A stretch of 52,452 nucleotides of DNA from Eubacteriales bacterium (lineage in GTDB: Bacteria; Bacillota; Clostridia; Oscillospirales; CAG-272), in NCBI GenBank assembly GCA_045597265.1, contig JAZODX010000077.1, positions 1-52,452 of the forward strand, read 5' to 3'. Below, piece by piece: positions 1-8,357 of this stretch (position 1 is its first letter; every line of letters starts with the position of its first letter). Position numbers and translations under genes: made by a program. The notes beneath the pieces are model-generated. The model worked only from the letters and a program-made list of their open reading frames with translations. It was not told the origin of the DNA and did no database searches.

Positions 1-198
1 GGCGTTTACAGAGCCAATTTAAACAAGCTTATATTTGTTACCCTGCTTGAAGCGCGTTTAAAAGAAGAAAATATAGACGTTTCCTCACTTTGCACGTTTT
101 GCAATCCTGATGAGTTTTTTTCTCACAGGTATCATAAAGAAAACAGAGGAACAATGGGTGCTATGATAGCTTTAGCGCCGGAAAGGAATCATAAATGA
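1..198 (+). CDS. pgeF: Peptidoglycan editing factor PgeF/YfiH-family (laccase-domain) protein, C-terminal fragment (5'-truncated by window)
   Basis: Manual translation of frame +1 gives ...ENIDVSSLCTFCNPDEFFSHRYHKENRGTMGAMIAL...*, matching the CT-x-C...FFSHR...G C-terminal signature of YfiH/PgeF. The TGA overlaps the next ATG (ATGA at 195-198). Confidence 0.75.
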   Translation, partial: GVYRANLNKLIFVTLLEARLKEENIDVSSLCTFCNPDEFFSHRYHKENRGTMGAMIALAPERNHK

Positions 199-1181
199 TA
201 AAAATAGAAAATCTCGTCAAGCGTTACGGGCAAAAATACGCTCTTGACTCAATATCGCTTGAGATAAATCAAGGCGACGTTGTTGGTTTTCTCGGCCCGA
301 ACGGCGCCGGAAAATCAACTGCAATGAATATTATCACGGGTTATCTTTCGGCAAGCTCCGGTAACGTTTATATTAACGGTGTGAGCGTGCTTGACGATCC
401 CATACTTGTAAAATCAATGATAGGGTATTTGCCCGAACAGCCCCCGCTTTACATAGATATGACGGTCAGAGAATATCTCAATTTCGTATTCGATCTTAAA
501 AAATGCTCATACAGCCGCAAAAAGCATATCGACGAGATCTGCTCTGTCGTTAAGATAACAGACGTTGCAAACCGCGTTATCAGAAACCTTTCAAAGGGTT
601 ACAGACAGAGAGTGGGCATCGCTCAGGCTTTGATAGGCAATCCTCCGATAATCATAATGGACGAGCCGACTGTCGGCCTTGACCCCAAGGAGATAATCGA
701 GATACGCAGCCTTATAAGAAGGCTTGGCGAAAAGCACACGATAATTTTAAGCTCACACATTCTTTCCGAGATACAGGCTATATGCGAAAGGATCATCATT
801 ATAGATTCAGGCAGAATAGTTGCCGATAAGCCAACAGACGAGCTCGCAAGATTCGTTCAGGCAAACAAGAAGTATAACGTAAAGGTTGCAGGGCCAAGAG
901 GCGAGGTTTTAAAGTTACTTGAATCGCTCGACGGCATCAAGGATGCACAGCACACGGGCGAAGAAGACGGCGGAGTTTATATATTCACACTTGAAACCGA
1001 AGCAGGCGTTGACGTAAGAAAGCTTATATTCGCTTCTCTTGCAGAAAACGGCTGGCCTTTGATGGGGCTTGAAGAGCAGAGTGTAACGCTTGAGGACGTG
1101 TTCATCTCGATCGTTGATAACAATAATTACCAGACTGAAAAAGCAAGCCGTGCCTCATGGGACGACGATGATAACGCATAA
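195..1181 (+). CDS. ABC-2 type transporter ATP-binding protein (GldA-like)
   Basis: Walker A GPNGAGKST, signature LSKGYRQR, Walker B IIMDEPT, H-loop SSH. Confidence 0.93.
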   Translation: MIKIENLVKRYGQKYALDSISLEINQGDVVGFLGPNGAGKSTAMNIITGYLSASSGNVYINGVSVLDDPILVKSMIGYLPEQPPLYIDMTVREYLNFVFDLKKCSYSRKKHIDEICSVVKITDVANRVIRNLSKGYRQRVGIAQALIGNPPIIIMDEPTVGLDPKEIIEIRSLIRRLGEKHTIILSSHILSEIQAICERIIIIDSGRIVADKPTDELARFVQANKKYNVKVAGPRGEVLKLLESLDGIKDAQHTGEEDGGVYIFTLETEAGVDVRKLIFASLAENGWPLMGLEEQSVTLEDVFISIVDNNNYQTEKASRASWDDDDNA

Positions 1182-1195
1182 GGGGGGTGCATTAG

Positions 1196-1903
1196 ATGAT
1201 CGCTATTTACAAAAGAGAAATGCTCTCGTATTTCACGGGATCTATCGGATACGTTTTTATAGCAGTATTTTTAGCACTCACGGGCGGTATGTTTTCTGTC
1301 TGCACGCTCTTTATGGGTGAAAGCAGCAGTATTTCAACATTCTTTATCGGCATAATGTTTGTTTACAGTATTGTAGTACCCCTGCTTACGATGAAAAGCT
1401 TCAGCGAGGAAAGAAAGTCACGCACAGAACAGCTTCTTTTAACCGCTCCCGTTTCGCTGACAGGTATGGTTATGGGCAAATTCTTTTCTGCTTATACGAT
1501 GTTTGCAGGAAGCTTTGTTTTATCGTGTGTAAACTTCTATACCCTTTTCAGATTCGGCACGCCTAACGTTGCCGTTCTTGTAAGCTATGCTATCGGTATA
1601 CTTCTTATCGGTGCCGCTTACGTTGCAATAGGTATGTTTATATCATCTCTTACGGAAAATCAGCTTATAGCGGCGATCGCCACGATAGGTACGCTTATAG
1701 TTATGCTCGTTATATCATTCGTTAACCAGTATATCGACTTCTATCCCGTCCGCGCAGTTTTAGACTGGATATCGATATACAGCCGTTTTTCGAATTTTAC
1801 GTTCGGCATACTTGATATAAGCTCGCTTTTCTACTACTTCTCTATTTGCTTTGTATTTTTATTCTTAACGGTGCGCGTTTACGAAAAGCGCCGTTGGTCG
1901 TGA
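1196..1903 (+). CDS. ABC-2 type permease (GldF-like)
   Basis: About 6 hydrophobic helices, the ABC-2 motif SEERKSRTEQLLLTAP, and position in the operon. Confidence 0.88.
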   Translation: MIAIYKREMLSYFTGSIGYVFIAVFLALTGGMFSVCTLFMGESSSISTFFIGIMFVYSIVVPLLTMKSFSEERKSRTEQLLLTAPVSLTGMVMGKFFSAYTMFAGSFVLSCVNFYTLFRFGTPNVAVLVSYAIGILLIGAAYVAIGMFISSLTENQLIAAIATIGTLIVMLVISFVNQYIDFYPVRAVLDWISIYSRFSNFTFGILDISSLFYYFSICFVFLFLTVRVYEKRRWS

Positions 1904-1916
1904 CAGGAGGGGCAGT

Positions 1917-3389
1917 ATGAATAACAAAATTACAGCATTTTTCAAAAGCCGCTCGTTTAAGCGCGGCAGTATGAGTATGGCGCTTACAATAGCCGTTATT
2001 GCATCTGTCATTATACTTAATATTATCATCACGGCTCTTGCTCACGAGTATTATCTTTACATAGACATGACCAAGGACAGCGTGTTCAAGCTCACAGACG
2101 AGGCTCTTGCCATCGTTGAGGGCATAGACGACGAGGTAAACATCATTTTCTGCGACGACGTTGACTCCCTTCAGTCTAATCTTTATCAGAAAACCGTGTA
2201 CAACACTGCGCTTGAATTATCCTCAAAGTTTGATAATATAAACATCAAGCACGTTGACGTATACAAAAACCCTTCGTCTGTTTCAAAATACAAGACCACA
2301 CAAGGCACGAGGATAACCGACCAGAGCGTTATCGTTGAAAGCGGCTCGGAATCCATCGTATACACCTTAAACGCTTTCTTTACGTATAACGAATCGGGGT
2401 ATGTTTGGGCATACAACGGCGAATACAAGCTTATATCGGGTATTTTGCGCGTTACGGCAGACGAAAGTCCTAAGGCTCTGTTTACAACGGGGCACGGCGA
2501 AAGTCTTGTTGACGATGCGTTGTGGGCGCTATTTGCCGATGCAGGCTATGAAGTAGACATAATAAATCTTATAGAAAACGACATTCCCAATGATACGCGA
2601 TTTATTATAATAAACGACCCGATATACGATTTTCAGGGAATAAGCGCCGATACCGAGGGCAAAAAATCGGAGATCGAGAAAATAGACGACTTTCTTGACG
2701 ATTTCGGTTGTCTTGCAGTATTTACCGACCCTGAAACACCCGAGCTTCCAGAGCTTTATTCTTTCCTCAAAGAATGGGGTATCGCGTTTGGCGAGCACAC
2801 GCTTAGGGATTACAACCATTCGCTTACAACAGACGGGCTTTCACTCGTTGCAGAGTACGCCAAGGGACAAACGGAGGGCGCAACGCTTATACGCGATATA
2901 ACCAAGATCGCAGAGCCGCCCAAAGCGATAGTCAAGAACGCAAGACCTGTTGAGATCCTCTTTGATTCAAGAGGCTCAAGAAACGTTTCGCCGATACTGA
3001 CAACGTCAAGCAAAGCGATGCTCGGTGATGAGAATGAAAACCTCGTTGACGGCGGAAGATTCAATCTTATGACTCTTTCAAGCGAGATGAGATATATCGA
3101 CAATCAGGATAAATATTCCTTCGTTCTTGCATGCGGCTCAACAAATTTTGCAACAAACGAGTATATAGGCCAGAAGGCATACTCAAACAGCGATATTCTT
3201 CATGCCGTAATGAAGCAGATGGGCCAGGAGAGAATTCCCGTAAACCTTGACCTCAAGCCGTTTGACGACACCTCTCTTGACATAACCGCAAGCGAGGCAA
3301 CAAACTGGTCGCTCGCAATAATACTGATACTTCCGATAACTGCAATAATATTCTGCACCGTAATTCTTATAAGGAGACGCCACGCATGA
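1917..3389 (+). CDS. GldG-like ABC-associated membrane protein
   Basis: N-terminal TM, DMTKDSVFKLT, thioredoxin-like region, FTTGHGE motif, C-terminal TM followed by RRRH. Confidence 0.8.
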   Translation: MNNKITAFFKSRSFKRGSMSMALTIAVIASVIILNIIITALAHEYYLYIDMTKDSVFKLTDEALAIVEGIDDEVNIIFCDDVDSLQSNLYQKTVYNTALELSSKFDNINIKHVDVYKNPSSVSKYKTTQGTRITDQSVIVESGSESIVYTLNAFFTYNESGYVWAYNGEYKLISGILRVTADESPKALFTTGHGESLVDDALWALFADAGYEVDIINLIENDIPNDTRFIIINDPIYDFQGISADTEGKKSEIEKIDDFLDDFGCLAVFTDPETPELPELYSFLKEWGIAFGEHTLRDYNHSLTTDGLSLVAEYAKGQTEGATLIRDITKIAEPPKAIVKNARPVEILFDSRGSRNVSPILTTSSKAMLGDENENLVDGGRFNLMTLSSEMRYIDNQDKYSFVLACGSTNFATNEYIGQKAYSNSDILHAVMKQMGQERIPVNLDLKPFDDTSLDITASEATNWSLAIILILPITAIIFCTVILIRRRHA

Positions 3390-4954
3390 GCGAAAACAAC
3401 GAAAAAAACGAGGGTATATTCGACGAGCCAAAGCCGAGATATACCGCAAAGAAAAAGCGCCGCGACGATTTCAGACGGCAGGCAAGAATTCTCATTATCG
3501 TGTTTCTTGTTGCCCTGATCTCTTTGTCTGCCTATCTCTTCGTTATTAAGCCTCTAGTTGAAAAAACAGAAGAGATACCCGAAGAATTGCCTGTACTTCT
3601 CGACGGAGAGGTACTTGGCCCTCAAAACAGAATACTTATTATGGAGTATCTGAAAAAGGACGATATCGCATCAATTGACGTTCATAATGAGCACGGCGAC
3701 TTCGGCTTTGAATACAATGAAGAGGACGACGCGTTCTACCTAAAGGGTAACAAATCTGCCGCATACAGCAAGGAGGTCTTCCAGAATCTTCTGTCCGCGG
3801 CGGGATATACGCTTGCTATGGAGCGGATCACAGATTATACCGAAAACTTTTCAGAGTACGGTCTTTCAGAGCTTGATAATCCTGCATGGTATATACTTAC
3901 GGGCAGAAACGGTGTTTCTCATAAGCTGTATATCGGCGATGCGCTTCCGTCAGGCGCAGGCTACTACGTAAGATACGACGGACGAGATGCCGTTTACGTT
4001 CTGGACTATACTATATCCGAAACGCTTCTTGCTCCGATCGAAGCGATAATCGCACCCACTCTCGCTTTCCCTGCTGGTCAGAACGGATATTACATGCTTG
4101 ATAACTTCGCACTCAAAAAAGACGGCGAAATCGTTATAGCGCTTGAATATCTTGATGAAGAAGCACGTAAGGCGCTCGGTGTATCCACTATGCATGCTTT
4201 CATCTATCCCGAGGAATATACGCCAAGCGATACGTCTTATCTTGAAGTGTTCGCGCACTTTGCCGACTATACAGGTATTTCCACTTTAGTATATCAGCCT
4301 GATATTGAGGATATAAAAAAGTACGGTCTCGAAAAGCCGAAATACGATCTGTATTTTGAAGTTATGGGTATGCCGAACAATATCATATTCAGTGAAAAGA
4401 ATGAAAACGGTAACTACTACGCTTATTCCCCGGTATTTGACATAATAAGCGAGGTTGAAGCCGCAAAGGCAGACTGGCTTGAATGGGGGCTTTTAAACTG
4501 GATAGAAAGGCCGCTTCTTCAGGTAAGCATATTTAATATTGACGAGATCTCTATTGAAAGCGAAAAGGCCGATTACCGTTTTGTTTTGGAAAGCGATGAG
4601 TCCGGTGTCAAGTCTGTATATGAAGCACTTAGCCAAAGAGAGATTACAGATATTGATAACTTCAAGAAATTCTATCAGACGATACTTATGACAAGCCTTC
4701 AGGACTATGCAGAGCTGACAGAAGATAAGATAGCCTCGCTTGAGGCGGCAGGCGCATACATGACGATGACGGTAAAAATGAAGGACGGCACTTCAAAGGT
4801 ATATAGGTTCTATCCATATGAAACGCGCCGTGCATACTACACGACAAACGGTGTTGGCAACTTCTACGTTATCCGCGACCGTATGGTAAAGATAATCGAC
4901 GACGCCGCAAAGGTTGTTGCAGGAGAAACTGTTGTTCCCGAAGCTAATAACTGA
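3386..4954 (+). CDS. DUF4340-type membrane-anchored protein
   Basis: N-terminal TM; repeated (E/K)YGL-x-x-P segments and LYIGD...YYVR...VY; typical fourth gene of GldAFG-like operons; ATGA overlap with the upstream gene. Confidence 0.7.
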   Translation: MSENNEKNEGIFDEPKPRYTAKKKRRDDFRRQARILIIVFLVALISLSAYLFVIKPLVEKTEEIPEELPVLLDGEVLGPQNRILIMEYLKKDDIASIDVHNEHGDFGFEYNEEDDAFYLKGNKSAAYSKEVFQNLLSAAGYTLAMERITDYTENFSEYGLSELDNPAWYILTGRNGVSHKLYIGDALPSGAGYYVRYDGRDAVYVLDYTISETLLAPIEAIIAPTLAFPAGQNGYYMLDNFALKKDGEIVIALEYLDEEARKALGVSTMHAFIYPEEYTPSDTSYLEVFAHFADYTGISTLVYQPDIEDIKKYGLEKPKYDLYFEVMGMPNNIIFSEKNENGNYYAYSPVFDIISEVEAAKADWLEWGLLNWIERPLLQVSIFNIDEISIESEKADYRFVLESDESGVKSVYEALSQREITDIDNFKKFYQTILMTSLQDYAELTEDKIASLEAAGAYMTMTVKMKDGTSKVYRFYPYETRRAYYTTNGVGNFYVIRDRMVKIIDDAAKVVAGETVVPEANN

Positions 4955-4961
4955 AAATAAA

Positions 4962-4999
4962 AATGATGGCAGACACTCTTTTTTGTGTCTGCCATCATT
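4962..4999. terminator. Intrinsic terminator hairpin after the ABC operon
   Basis: 15-bp perfect stem AATGATGGCAGACAC / GTGTCTGCCATCATT just downstream of the stop at 4954. Confidence 0.8.
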
Positions 5000-5133
5000 A
5001 TATTACTTCACCTTTATATATTGTGATCATCCGTTGGTGAAGCCGACACCTTCTCTTTTATTTCTTATCTGAAAACGACAATTTCTCAGAGAAGTGTGAA
5101 AAGAGAAAAGTGAAGGGATAATAGTACCAAAAA

Positions 5134-5216
5134 GGACTCGAATTCTCGACAGCATACTCGGTCTGGGTCGGCTCTGACTGCCACCATTAGTCTTCACTAC
5201 CGACCCGTTCGAGTCC
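5134..5216. repeat. tRNA-T-arm-like nested palindromic element
   Basis: GGACTCGAA (5134-5142) pairs with TTCGAGTCC (5208-5216); inner GGGTCGG (5165-5171) pairs with CCGACCC (5200-5206). Contains the GTTCGAGTCC T-loop motif but no full cloverleaf. Confidence 0.5.
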
Positions 5217-5232
5217 ATTCTATCTGCATATC

Positions 5233-5260
5233 AAAAAGAAAAACACGCCTCTTGGCGTGT
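5233..5260 (-). terminator. Intrinsic terminator of the four-helix-bundle gene
   Basis: ACACGCC-TCTT-GGCGTGT hairpin (5243-5260) followed on the minus strand by a T-rich tract; touches the stop codon. Confidence 0.65.
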
Positions 5261-5616
5261 CAATCGTTGTTCTTCTTCGCAGTATTTATTGATGAAATAA
5301 GTATTTTGCGAATCGTTCCGCATTGATTATACAATTCTTTTGCAATTTGCCTGTCTAATATCTCTGATTTGACAAAAAGCTCAAGCCAATACTCGGTTTC
5401 ATAGCATTCTTTCTGCGCTATTTCAAGCTTTGATATGAAATCCTTTGTACCTTGTGCATACTGTGCCTCATGAATATTGGCTCCAATAGAGGTACCGGAA
5501 CGTAATAACTGATTAATCAGAACGGCTTCTTTGTGTTCGGATTTCATATTACGGCAGAGAAAAACAATGTTTTTTGCAAAATTCTTTGCCTTATCTCTTA
5601 AAATGCTGTTTGACAT
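5260..5616 (-). CDS. Four-helix-bundle protein (23S rRNA IVP / bAvd-like family)
   Basis: QLLRSGTSIGANIHEA...DFISKLEIAQKECYETEYWLEL family signature. Start moved to MSNSIL (ATG at 5616), preceded by the RBS GAGAGGTGA. Confidence 0.9.
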   Translation of the reverse strand: MSNSILRDKAKNFAKNIVFLCRNMKSEHKEAVLINQLLRSGTSIGANIHEAQYAQGTKDFISKLEIAQKECYETEYWLELFVKSEILDRQIAKELYNQCGTIRKILISSINTAKKNND

Positions 5617-5634
5617 TGTATCACCTCTCTCTAT

Positions 5635-5663
5635 GTTATACAATGAAACCAACAATTAGTCAA
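5635..5663 (-). promoter_or_regulatory. sigmaA-type promoter of the four-helix-bundle gene
   Basis: Minus strand TTGACT-N17-TATAAC. The -35 box shares its outermost base with the adjacent repeat element. Confidence 0.7.
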
Positions 5664-5864
5664 GTTATATTCCGACTTCGTCGGAGTGATATTATTGCTG
5701 CCGCAATAGTGATATTGAAGCCTTACGGCTTCAGTGATATTCTATTCGCCCTAAAACTCGCGAAGCGAATACCACTCGGCGTAAGCCGAATATCACTGCA
5801 AAGCAATAAAACTCGCCGCAGGCGAATAGAACTGGCGTGATACTCCGTTAAGAGTATCACGCCA
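5663..5864. repeat. Dyad-symmetric repeat/hairpin ladder element
   Basis: AGT(T/G)ATATT at 5663, 5685, 5708, 5733, separated by short hairpins. Inverted copies AATACCACT, AATATCACT, AATAAAACT, AATAGAACT at 5768, 5789, 5805, 5825, also separated by hairpins. Terminal 13-bp stem 5833-5845/5852-5864. Confidence 0.85.
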
Positions 5865-5891
5865 ATGCGGCAGCCCCTTTCGCGTTGGGGA

Positions 5892-8357
5892 TTAAACGAT
5901 AAAATCGTAGCTTCCGGGAGCAAGCTCAAGCACGGCACAGCCGTCACGGCAGACGTCGGCGCGGATCGTCTCTCCGTTCACGGTGTAGCAGTCCTTTCCG
6001 CAAAGCGGCAGATGCAGCGTTGCGGTAACCGGAACGGTGGTGCTGAAGCGGAGGTCGCCCTGCTCGGTGGACCATGCCGTCTCGATCCGTCCGCTCGGCG
6101 CGTCGAACGCGGCGTTAACGTGCGTGATGCGGGACTGTCCCTCGGGCAGCTCAGCGTCGGTACGCAGGTCGGGATGCGGATGAAGCAGAATATGCGCAAA
6201 TCCGGGGGTGTCGGTATCGATGCCCGCCATATAGCGGTACATCCACTCGCCGACAACGCCGTATGCATAGTGGTTGAAGGAGTTCATGCTCACGTCGCCG
6301 AAGCCGGTGGCCAGCGTGTAGGAATTCCAGCGTTCCCAGATGGTGGTTGCACCCTGGCGTACCGAGTAAAGCCAGGACGGATTCTCGGTCTGGAGCAGAA
6401 GCGAATAGGCCATACCCGGCGCGCCGATGGCGGAGAGGGTATGCGCAAGCGCTCCCGTGCCGACGAAGCCGGTCGAAAGACGGTAGCCGTTGTCGCGGAT
6501 CTTCCGGAGCAGAGCCTCCTTTGCGTCGGCGCGCATCTCCTCAGGGAGAAGGTTGTGTGCAAGGGCGAGCAGATAGGCGCACTGAGACGTTTCGATCAGC
6601 TTGCCGTCGCGGATATAAACCGAGCGGAAGTGCTCAACCAGGCGGGCGTGCAGGTCGCGGTAATGGGCGGCGCGGTCGTCCCGACCGATCGCCCCGGCCA
6701 TCTCGGCCATCAGGCGGGCGTCGTAAACGTAGTAGACCACCGAGATGAATTCGTTGGTGGTCGGCTCGTAAGCCAGCCAGTCACCGTAACGGGTGAGCGG
6801 ACCCTCCATGCCGCGAGAGGCAAGGAAGTCCATGTACTTTTCCATCGAGGCGAAATTCTCCTCGATGATGCCGGTCTTGCCGTAGACGGTGTACATGGTG
6901 TGCGGCACGATGATGCCGGCGTCTCCCCATGCGGCTGCGCCGTATCCGACGGCGGAAATGTAAGGCGCAACGTCGGGATACGCTCCGTCCTCAGCCTGCG
7001 AGTCGCGCATATCGCCCATCCACTTGCGCAAAAAGTCGTAAACGTCGCCGTTGTAGGAGGCGGTGCGGGCGAAAATCTGAGTGTCACCCGTCCAGCCGAG
7101 GCGCTCGTCGCGCTGCGGGCAGTCGGTGGGAATGGAGAGATAGTTGCCGCGCTGACCCCAGAGAATGTTGGAGATCAGGCGGTTGACCTCGGGATTCGAG
7201 GTCTCAAGGAAGCCGGTCTCGCGCACCTGTGAGCCGATGACCTCACCCAGCACGCAGCGGAGATCGATGGGTGCGTCGGCGGTCAGCTCCACATAGCGGA
7301 AGCCGAAGAAGGTGAAGGTGGGTGCGTATTCCTCTCCGTCGGGGGCGCCCGAGAGAACGTATTTGTTCTTGGCCTTGGCCGAACGGTAGTTGACGGCGTA
7401 AATGCTTCCCTTCGGGCCGTCGTTGCCGCGGCTCTTCTCGCCGCTGTCGTTGAGCATTTCGGCATAGCGCATCAGGAGCGCGCTTCCGGCGCGGCCGCGC
7501 ACCTGAATGCGCAGACGGCCGACCATTTCCTGGCCGAGATCCAGAATCAGCGTCTGGCCGGGGAGCAGGCGGTGGGGCAGGGATCCGCCGGTATAGAGGG
7601 GAACGATCTCGCCGAAGTCACTGCCGTTGTCCTTCGTGCCGGCGTAAAGGGTATAGGTGGAGGGGGTGCGGCAGAGGAAGTCACGCACGCCGACCGTCGG
7701 GCCGATGTGCGGGGTGACCACACCCGTGAACTGCGTAAAGCGGGAGGGCGTTTTCCATTCGCCCGGAACGTCGCCGATTTGCGACAGCGCGGCGTAGGAC
7801 GGGCGGCGGGCATCGCAGACCTCACCGTCCCAGATGTCACCAAGGAGCACCGGGCCGCCGACCTGTGCCTGCCAGGAGTCGTCTGAGACGATACGGTGTT
7901 CTCCGTCGGTATCGGTATAGTCAAGTGCGGCAATAAAGGCGGGGGTATGCTTGCCGAAGGTATCAAAGCCGATTCGTCCCGTCCACCAGCCGCCCGACAG
8001 AATAACGAGCAGGCAGTTTTCTCCGGCACGGAGATAGGGGGCGAGATCGTAGGTAAAGGCCAGCGCGCGGCGGTGGTAATCGGTCCAACCGGGCTTCAGC
8101 TCGTCTCGGCCGACGCGGCGGCCGTTGCACCAAAGCTCAATCAGACCAAGCGCGGTAAAGGTGATCGAGGCAGAGGTAAGGGGGGCCGAGACGGAGAAGG
8201 TGCGGCGGAAGAGGGGAAGTCCGTCCTCTTCAAAAAGCGGTTCCCAGCGATCGGGATAGGCGGGCTTGGCCACCCAGGGGTTGTCTCGTGCATTGCGGTC
8301 AATAAATTCGGGCAGGCAGAGCCAGGCTGCGCCCGAGAGAATCGTATCGGTCATCAT
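5892..8357 (-). CDS. Alpha-L-rhamnosidase, glycoside hydrolase family 78
   Basis: PTDCPQRDERLGWTGD, GATTIWERWNS, SMNSFNHYAYG, DLGQEMVG and FTFFGFRYVE motifs. No signal peptide. Confidence 0.93.
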   Translation of the reverse strand: MMTDTILSGAAWLCLPEFIDRNARDNPWVAKPAYPDRWEPLFEEDGLPLFRRTFSVSAPLTSASITFTALGLIELWCNGRRVGRDELKPGWTDYHRRALAFTYDLAPYLRAGENCLLVILSGGWWTGRIGFDTFGKHTPAFIAALDYTDTDGEHRIVSDDSWQAQVGGPVLLGDIWDGEVCDARRPSYAALSQIGDVPGEWKTPSRFTQFTGVVTPHIGPTVGVRDFLCRTPSTYTLYAGTKDNGSDFGEIVPLYTGGSLPHRLLPGQTLILDLGQEMVGRLRIQVRGRAGSALLMRYAEMLNDSGEKSRGNDGPKGSIYAVNYRSAKAKNKYVLSGAPDGEEYAPTFTFFGFRYVELTADAPIDLRCVLGEVIGSQVRETGFLETSNPEVNRLISNILWGQRGNYLSIPTDCPQRDERLGWTGDTQIFARTASYNGDVYDFLRKWMGDMRDSQAEDGAYPDVAPYISAVGYGAAAWGDAGIIVPHTMYTVYGKTGIIEENFASMEKYMDFLASRGMEGPLTRYGDWLAYEPTTNEFISVVYYVYDARLMAEMAGAIGRDDRAAHYRDLHARLVEHFRSVYIRDGKLIETSQCAYLLALAHNLLPEEMRADAKEALLRKIRDNGYRLSTGFVGTGALAHTLSAIGAPGMAYSLLLQTENPSWLYSVRQGATTIWERWNSYTLATGFGDVSMNSFNHYAYGVVGEWMYRYMAGIDTDTPGFAHILLHPHPDLRTDAELPEGQSRITHVNAAFDAPSGRIETAWSTEQGDLRFSTTVPVTATLHLPLCGKDCYTVNGETIRADVCRDGCAVLELAPGSYDFIV

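Follow-up and report, generated by a model that had tools for sequence, protein, structure and literature searches.

A two-armed Gut-1 array joined to the promoter of a four-helix-bundle gene: a candidate mobile cassette in Clostridia

The stretch of DNA analyzed here (the window: 52,452 nucleotides, contig JAZODX010000077.1 of the Eubacteriales assembly GCA_045597265.1, lineage Clostridia; Oscillospirales; CAG-272) carries, upstream of the gene for a small four-helix-bundle (4HB) protein, a ladder in which short repeated words alternate with mini-hairpins. Sequence comparison firmly places this ladder as a diverged, two-armed (inverted-pair) member of the Rfam family Gut-1 (RF01706). Comparison across genera shows, moreover, that the ladder, a putative σA-like promoter, and the PF05635 gene constitute one conserved unit, and gene-less relatives of the ladder are dispersed inside what appear to be split terminators, in the manner of miniature inverted-repeat transposable elements (MITEs). 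We tentatively propose that the ladder is a mobile word-and-hairpin array that acts as a folded strand, DNA being likelier than RNA, and that it may be read by the 4HB protein of its own cassette.

The ladder and the Gut-1 family

The ladder spans positions 5663-5864 and comprises four 9-mers in direct orientation and four copies in inverted orientation, along with seven mini-hairpins and a 13-bp stem, each of which lies where a preliminary description of this DNA had reported it:

5663, 5685, 5708, and 5733 (starts): direct 9-mers from repeat analysis, AGTTATATT first and then AGTGATATT three times
5768-5776, 5789-5797, 5805-5813, and 5825-5833: inverted 9-mer copies, each with a hairpin ahead of it
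5663..5741, plus strand (the Gut-1 sense): proximal arm, four 9-mers and three perfect hairpins
5757..5834, minus strand (the strand of the 4HB gene): distal ("canonical") Gut-1 arm
5740..5750: centre segment TTCTATTCGCC, pairing with 5821-5831 (GGCGAATAGAA) over 11 bp, 100% complementary
5833..5864: terminal hairpin, arms 5833-5845 and 5852-5864, a 13-bp perfect stem and a 6-nt loop

The direct 9-mers begin 22, 23, and 25 nt apart, and the gaps between them are filled by three perfect hairpins that are unrelated to one another. Read on the gene strand, the proximal arm carries AATATCACT with the loops GAA, GGCA, and GUAA, and the distal arm has four hairpins with the minus-strand loops UGC, UUU, UUAC, and UUC, between which stand the words AGUUCUAUU, AGUUUUAUU, AGUGAUAUU, and AGUGGUAUU. 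The first hairpin of the distal arm (TCGCC/GGCGA) is unchanged in nine of nine aligned ladders, and the GGCGAATA centre is invariant across the aligned GTGATAT-type ladders. The centre segment also forms one strand of an 11-bp "closing" helix (5740-5750/5821-5831) that the preliminary description did not list and that competes with the CGCC-GCA-GGCG hairpin at 5814-5824; its design, in which the 5′ strand of the first hairpin is repeated as its complement behind the last hairpin of the arm, is visible by eye in ladders built on other words as well. The terminal hairpin, each arm of which contains a word-like GTGATAC, closes the repeat unit on its outer side in the window's genome and recurs in gene-less copies on contigs C152, C220, C55, and C106; it lies outside the unit common to the cassettes of other genera, whose homology begins at 5834.

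Both arms match Gut-1 from end to end. The distal arm (5764-5834, minus strand) scores 44.2 bits (E = 1.3e-7) and the proximal arm (5641-5720, plus strand) 34.3 bits (E = 4.2e-5), each over model positions 1-77 of 77 and the latter with its register shifted by one unit; both scores fall under the 50-bit gathering cut-off. Six sibling arms in the window's genome exceed that cut-off (51.7-62.1 bits), the ladder is 76-91% identical to above-threshold Gut-1 copies, and both arms display over their full length the three hairpins between, and flanked by, four heptamer copies that characterize the family. The word in the window is of the GUGAUAU type, and the Gut-1 consensus word is GUGAAAU. The preliminary description had known of no named family for the ladder and had itself listed a match to a described Rfam family as what would undo that novelty; since both halves match RF01706, the claim no longer stands. 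With Gut-1 the ladder shares three or four variable hairpins parted by a constant heptamer, and an occurrence in gut bacteria, and it differs in that the two arms of the window copy form an inverted pair to which a promoter and a 4HB gene are fused. Matches to CRISPR, riboswitch, and miRNA-like Rfam families between 4800 and 6400 were all far below threshold. The main text of Weinberg et al. (2010, PMC2864571) gives Gut-1 as a likely non-coding RNA, with human gut DNA as its only known source. We found no paper that links Gut-1 with PF05635, a statement that for PMC2864571 covers Table 1 and passages of the main text, the additional files of which may say more on context.

The window's genome (an assembly of 2.43 Mb in 228 contigs, 75% complete) holds 17 Gut-1 matches at E ≤ 1, most of them in convergent plus/minus pairs and many lying at the ends of contigs, and matches occur in 28 of 41 related genomes, with up to 58 in one genome. 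A pattern of three spaced words (RTGAWRT-N10-24-RTGAWRT-N10-24-RTGAWRT) is found 12 times in the window's genome and 475 times in the 41 relatives, against 0 and 5 matches for the reversed pattern. Rfam matches total 371 and pattern matches 475; adjacency counts that draw on the first 150 of each are lower bounds.

Both strands of the ladder fold alike, as had been suggested, and they fold strongly: the RNA z-scores are −9.6 (plus strand) and −10.3 (minus strand), the DNA z-scores −7.9 and −9.4, and none of 200 shuffles folds as well in either case. The nested four-way junctions envisaged earlier are borne out in part, in that the inner left and right repeats pair to give one junction, whereas the full ladder of junctions is possible but is not predicted in minimum-energy folds. 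Selection on structure, also suspected from the window, agrees with compensatory stem changes among nine homologous GTGATAT-type ladders, in which 88.2% of stem cells are paired as compared with 70.9% in shuffles (0 of 500 as high), pairing falls to 36-44% when the stem partners are slid, and both sides have changed in 21 of 36 stem pairs, where shuffles average 10.6.

A conserved cassette of array, promoter, and four-helix-bundle gene

On the minus strand the parts follow one another in the order end of the GH78 rhamnosidase gene (5892), terminal hairpin (5864-5833), distal arm, proximal arm, promoter, 4HB gene, and terminator. The features outside the ladder are:

5865..5891, minus strand: flank between the rhamnosidase stop codon (5892) and the element, an A-run and then a GC-rich stretch
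5635..5663, minus strand: promoter-like site, TTGACT (5663-5658), 17 nt, TATAAC (5640-5635)
5629-5622, minus strand: GAGAGGTG, ahead of the 4HB ATG at 5616-5614
5260..5616, minus strand: gene of the 4HB protein, start codon ATG at 5616, product of 118 aa
5242..5261, minus strand: terminator-like hairpin and T-run directly behind the 4HB stop codon

The promoter, which an automated scan missed on the minus strand because its −10 element has C as the final base and which was read from the sequence instead, abuts the array so closely that the last base of the outermost word is the first T of its −35. Scored against TTGACA-16..18-TATAAT in the 90 nt preceding the start codon, a promoter match of at least 10 of 12 positions is present in 30 of 60 related 4HB loci, where 1.5 would be expected from shuffles; 23 of these 30 also carry the extended TG at −15/−14, and across related loci the −35 begins mostly 47-60 nt ahead of the ATG. 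Because the array lies upstream of the gene's predicted promoter, it should stand outside the gene's mRNA. Cassettes in four other genomes are 83, 73, 70, and 70% identical to that of the window, and this cross-genus homology starts sharply at 5834 and continues through the array and the promoter into the 4HB gene. The terminator-like hairpin behind the gene is likely the inner end of the cassette. At the outer side, the flank at 5865..5891 resembles the 5′ half of a terminator, the complementary 3′ half of which was not found in 4900-5262 (best stretch 7 nt).

Within its own genome only part of this unit is repeated: blastn of window positions 4900-6000 returned repeats for 5662-5880 only. 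Public sequencing runs, the best of which carry at most 29% of the sampled words, place the boundaries similarly. Contigs from four of these runs have a summed depth of 1000-3300 on 5676-5858 as against about 5 on the flanks, and they diverge just before 5663 and just after 5865. Runs X1-X3 and the RNA run X19 yield hundreds of ladder-like contigs with loose ends at 5663 and 5865; in these runs there is no clean joint across the element, and the contigs give no sign of transcription, DNA carry-over being possible.

By profile match, the only gene of the cassette is a full-length PF05635/TIGR02436 four-helix-bundle gene, its product scoring 93.4 bits against PF05635 (cut-off 33.8) and 105.1 bits against TIGR02436 (cut-off 24). 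The protein also matches PDB entry 2rld, which has five chains, with an E-value of 2e-28 over residues 1-116, and a PADLOC search gave no defence family. According to the passages on this family in PMC4990558, the Xanthomonas campestris member of PF05635 is a toroidal homopentamer.

The association of gene and array extends beyond the window. Among the 41 related genomes, 23 hold both Gut-1 and PF05635, 5 hold Gut-1 only (1-3 matches each), 2 hold the 4HB gene only (both fragmented assemblies), and 11 hold neither, a distribution to which no p-value is attached because kin are not independent. An arm, detected as three or more similar 7-mers that stand 15-36 nt apart and are separated by a hairpin of 4 bp or longer, lies within 450 nt upstream of 40 of the 63 4HB genes taken in from these genomes (67 PF05635 genes were listed, and the four lowest-scoring were left out), and an arm of at least four words precedes 22 of the 63; the background of the detector in the window's genome is 254 and 26 arms, respectively, per 2.43 Mb, or about 5% and 0.6% per interval searched. 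Among the matches listed, all Gut-1 matches that adjoin 4HB genes are 5′ of the gene. Co-occurrence, upstream adjacency, and the conserved unit together uphold the earlier suggestion that the ladder is linked to the adjacent four-helix-bundle gene.

The heptamer word varies between cassettes and follows the 4HB clade. Its general form is xTGAxxT, four per arm; it is GTGATAT in the window cassette, with the complement in the other arm, and elsewhere GTGAAAT, ATGAAAT, ATGATGT, GTGATGT, GTGAAGT, GCGATAT, ATGTAAT, TGATGATAT, ATGAATTG, GTTATGA, and others, making at least 12 types, several of which may share one genome. On a tree of 52 4HB proteins, from which ten proteins were dropped for length and one locus for want of a called start, the word types can be accounted for by 21 changes, where 19 is the minimum and shuffles average 39.2, none of 200 being as low. 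The protein clades cut across genomes, and the two residues ahead of the invariant R in the QxxRS motif differ by clade (LL, LE, IG, or IR). In addition, most of the 4HB genes that lack a hairpin ladder are accompanied by tandem arrays of similar words, inverted in arrangement and free of hairpins; the words, therefore, rather than the hairpins, appear to be the constant feature, which fits a multimeric reader. Within arms, a 5-mer is shared by 37 of 75 linker pairs and by 36 of 158 hairpin pairs, a weak contrast that is blurred by greedy stems eating into linkers and is not relied on here.

Stable-RNA genes are frequent neighbors. Thirty of 60 4HB loci stand behind tRNA genes, which are always upstream and co-oriented, and the best-scoring Gut-1 copies lie directly behind complete tRNA or tmRNA terminators. 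Behind tRNA-linked Gut-1 pairs without a 4HB gene there is a conserved "tail" of about 60 nt that ends at a terminator (loci L021, L022, L018, and L019, and C30:1080-1140 and C76:3150-3205 in the window's genome); an Rfam scan of the tail returned no family, and its opposite strand could encode a short peptide with a conserved YEKDIFG-like start, no ribosome-binding site being seen by eye.

PF05635 proteins are also found in the 23S rRNA intervening sequences (IVS, S23p), small selfish elements in which the gene lies by strong inverted repeats in or behind stable-RNA genes; in the account of PMC4990558, the gene sits within the rRNA, enclosed by a terminal stem of 28 bp, and RNase III cuts the IVS out. 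The window cassette differs in that its repeats lie upstream only, its gene has its own putative promoter, and nothing places the element in rRNA. The Avd protein of diversity-generating retroelements, which works with structured nucleic acid, has a homologous four-helix-bundle fold. The relevant passage of PMC10053308 likewise states that PF05635 "resembles Avd." A diversity-generating retroelement was rejected as an identity for the cassette: there is no reverse transcriptase in the four neighboring open reading frames scanned (GH78 rhamnosidase, DUF4340, ABC auxiliary protein, and 4HB) and no template/variable repeat pair was seen, an unlinked reverse transcriptase not having been searched for. 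Type III toxin-antitoxin systems (ToxIN-like) hold a repeat array and a protein gene in one transcript with a terminator between them, a layout that the cassette does not share, its promoter lying between array and gene.

Close to the cassette, at 5051-5134, the window holds a hairpin-less inverted word array (25-nt arms, 76% complementary) with no gene behind it. Over 84 nt it shares 77% identity with the array that lies upstream of a 4HB gene of a different genome (L094), and it has the look of what remains of another, different cassette arranged in tandem on the minus strand. The segment at 5143-5221 is 78% identical to one beside the Gut-1 locus of another genome (L024, 1300-1380) and contains a tRNA T-arm-like motif; ARAGORN called no tRNA anywhere in the window, and the segment is possibly a decayed tRNA gene that once stood ahead of the second cassette. 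On the other side, the GH78 α-L-rhamnosidase gene (5892-8357) has about 62% G+C as compared with 36-48% on either side of it, and its ortholog in a genome of the same genus lies in a different context; the gene was possibly acquired horizontally.

Gene-less copies and mobility

The ladder has its closest relatives within its own genome, in two copies that lack a gene (90.6 and 87.8% identity), the nearest foreign cassette being 81.9% identical. Gene-less copies with both ends assembled are found on C152, on C220, and on C106 joined with C194. All three of these complete copies are bracketed by complementary A-run/GC-stem/T-run halves, of 26, 14, and 19 nt, as would be expected of copies dispersed inside terminators that they split. 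The C152 copy has 48-nt inverted ends that are 85% complementary. Gene-less copies have no adjoining promoter and lie between convergent gene ends. The end hairpin also occurs alone, at C63:5332-5368 as a 30-nt hairpin in the loop of a 19-bp terminator stem and at C175:20724-20753, where it is flanked directly by A- and T-runs; such a lone hairpin could be an excision footprint or a seed. The preliminary description had raised the possibility of a non-autonomous mobile unit, and the inverted ends and split terminators of the gene-less relatives agree with it, whereas the window copy, which shows no second end, does not.

In the six other genomes of the genus, which were searched for empty-site alleles, the sequences that flank the window cassette and the C152 copy are not syntenic. 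In loci L119-L122, of the same genus, word clusters resembling TTTTCCACA/TGTGGAAAA occupy, by the ortholog of the C152 right-flank gene, the place of the gene-less Gut-1 element; these words resemble DnaA boxes.

Gut-1 and the repetitive extragenic palindromes of bacteria (REP, the bacterial interspersed mosaic elements BIME, and REPINs) are alike as dispersed extragenic palindromes in inverted pairs, with one copy by a small gene and gene-less copies elsewhere, and with copies within a genome more alike than copies between genomes. They differ in that the linked gene of the window encodes a four-helix bundle and not an HUH/Y1 enzyme, and in that a REP unit is one imperfect palindrome, whereas in a Gut-1 unit a constant word links several different hairpins. 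The earlier idea of a REP system mobilized by a Y1 (RAYT, PF01797) transposase is abandoned because these transposases do not co-occur with Gut-1: PF01797 is present in 13 of the 28 genomes with Gut-1 and in 4 of the 13 without, and was not found in 5 of 9 high-copy genomes. The single PF01797 copy of the window's genome (on C157) has no ladder beside it; a hairpin by this only Y1 transposase gene, at C157:3085-3125, has a stem that resembles the first hairpin of canonical Gut-1 (AAATCCACCC...GGGTGG). No transposase-encoding relative of the element was found, PF01797 being the only transposase family searched, and the 4HB gene is the only gene in the gene-bearing form. The pneumococcal BOX and neisserial Correia elements, which are modular, highly folded, gene-less, and multi-copy, lie at gene ends, and have ends that can create promoter hexamers, are, by this general description, like the window family in fold, copy number, and placement; they differ from it in its word-and-hairpin ladder, its insertion into terminator loops, and the existence of a gene-bearing form.

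These comparisons bear on a rather unlikely alternative, in which the ladder is a selfish or structural DNA repeat of the MITE, REP/BIME, or BOX-like kind, moved by an unlinked host or insertion-sequence enzyme, with the 4HB gene as a passenger or neighbor. Such a repeat would be multi-copy and dispersed and would break assemblies at contig ends, as the ladder does, and the 48-nt inverted ends, the split-terminator flanks of the gene-less copies, and the isolated C63 end hairpin, with its resemblance to a footprint or seed, are all in keeping with it, as is the presence in five genomes (G008, G011, G013, G016, and G037) of array types without a matching 4HB gene. However, no transposase travels with the array and Y1/RAYT genes do not accompany it, the presence or absence of Gut-1 follows that of PF05635 closely, and the junction of array, promoter, and gene is fixed to the base across genera; moreover, the differences in word between cassettes of one genome call for a reader specific to each cassette or for none.

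A folded strand and its possible reader

The stems of the family are close to purely Watson-Crick. In 39 loci, 606 stem pairs are Watson-Crick, 1 is G-T, 1 is A-C, and 6 are other; in 29 further loci, where overlapping frames inflate the counts and leave the ratio unaffected, the corresponding numbers are 1205, 7, 0, and 6. Read as RNA, G-U thus makes up about 0.2-0.6% of stem pairs (1 of 614 and 7 of 1218), whereas structured RNAs usually hold several percent. Triloops account for 90 of 140 loops. Of 75 triloops, 54 read C(TNC)G on the xTGAxxT strand, which makes them C(GNA)G on the opposite one, and 17 of 26 tetraloops read C(TNNC)G in the same orientation. The purine-rich GNA/GNNA loops that had been noted on the plus strand in the right half of the window ladder and on the minus strand in its left half prove to be a family-wide rule. 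C(GNA)G is an extra-stable mini-hairpin of DNA. Because its stems are Watson-Crick-pure, its loops are of the C(GNA)G type, and it lies outside any predicted transcript, the ladder leans toward folded single-stranded DNA, or a constraint on both strands, over RNA.

A small non-coding RNA gene, expressed as two convergent Gut-1 RNAs or as one branched-rod transcript that might, for example, serve as a sponge or scaffold for a 4HB pentamer, is thus an unlikely reading, although several observations agree with it. Avd, the one characterized relative, works with structured RNA. Both arms match an Rfam family that was rated "Y" for RNA (main text of PMC2864571), their stems show compensatory changes, their RNA folding energies are very low, and ladder-like contigs occur in the metatranscriptome assembly X19, which does not show transcription. 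On the other hand, no promoter was found that reads into the array, and the only strong promoter fires away from it; the gene-less copies sit between terminator halves and the canonical copies behind complete tRNA/tmRNA terminators; and G-U pairs are far below the level of structured RNAs. In addition, the Rfam sense strand has the UNC triloops, with the stable GNA/GNRA types antisense, and the design is identical on both strands. For the scaffold RNA put forward in the preliminary description, the position of the array upstream of the promoter, the gene-less copies in split terminators, and the scarcity of G-U tell against it. A double-stranded operator or upstream promoter element, in which phased AT-rich words, spaced at about 21-25 bp, bend or wrap the DNA to regulate the 4HB promoter and the hairpins are incidental, is quite improbable: the last word does supply the first base of the −35, most loci keep 47-60 nt to the start codon, and successive words, at 22, 23, and 25 bp, stand close to two helical turns apart, but the hairpins are kept by compensatory change that double-stranded binding does not require, the gene-less copies lie between convergent gene ends without an adjoining promoter, and the hairpin-less relatives repeat their words every 7-8 nt, out of helical phase.

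The proposal that we favor is that the array acts as a folded single strand, more probably DNA than RNA, in which the stable mini-hairpins would be spacers that display four or five identical single-stranded words. The words would be read by a word-specific multimeric factor, the best candidate for which is the cassette's own 4HB protein, whose family forms toroidal homopentamers; a 4HB pentamer reading words on a folded strand is what we infer. Such binding might single out the element to be maintained or spread, and the promoter next to the last word could also come under its control.

Several points weigh against this proposal. The 4HB fold has no demonstrated sequence-specific nucleic-acid binding, the PADLOC search was empty, and Rfam's curators judged Gut-1 to be likely RNA (main text of PMC2864571). 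By the detector used here, 23 of the 63 4HB genes have no hairpin ladder. The correspondence of words to clades rests on word types assigned by eye, and adjacency alone would yield it, because gene and array are inherited together. Within a genome the types of the gene-less arrays match the 4HB-linked types only in part: G023, G019, G015, and the main types of G000 and G037 agree with the linked genes, whereas G008 (98% complete) is rich in GTGAAAT arrays and lacks any 4HB gene from the GTGAAAT clade, and array types that no linked gene matches are also present in G011, G013, G016, and G037. Finally, the window cassette (on C77) is not bracketed by terminator halves, only a 5′ half adjoining it and no second end having been found, and a search for whole 4HB cassettes in split terminators was negative: in 56 other loci the longest stretch of complementarity between the flanks on either side was no different from that of the mismatched-pair control (maximum 16 in both).

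A bolder version of the proposal, which we regard as doubtful, holds that Gut-1 is the DNA "address" of an as yet unrecognized type of mobile cassette and not a small RNA, that a toroidal 4HB pentamer reads the words proper to its own clade, four or five identical heptamers set out among C(GNA)G mini-hairpins on folded single-stranded DNA, and that gene-less derivatives are guided into terminator loops without a classical transposase. The link between array and protein lends itself to the bench, as a given 4HB protein should bind the heptamer word array of its own cassette and not that of its neighbor.

Two orphans meet in this cassette, Gut-1, catalogued in 2010, and the 23S-IVS/S23p four-helix-bundle family, known since 1993, both of them without a function. 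What Rfam holds as a small RNA may be, at least in part, a mobile DNA repeat that targets terminator loops. This matters for annotating gut metagenomes, whose assemblies are broken by such repeats, and for explaining how small cassettes come to spread when no transposase can be recognized. If the bolder version is true, the reading of a DNA address would be the first function for Gut-1 and for stand-alone PF05635 proteins.

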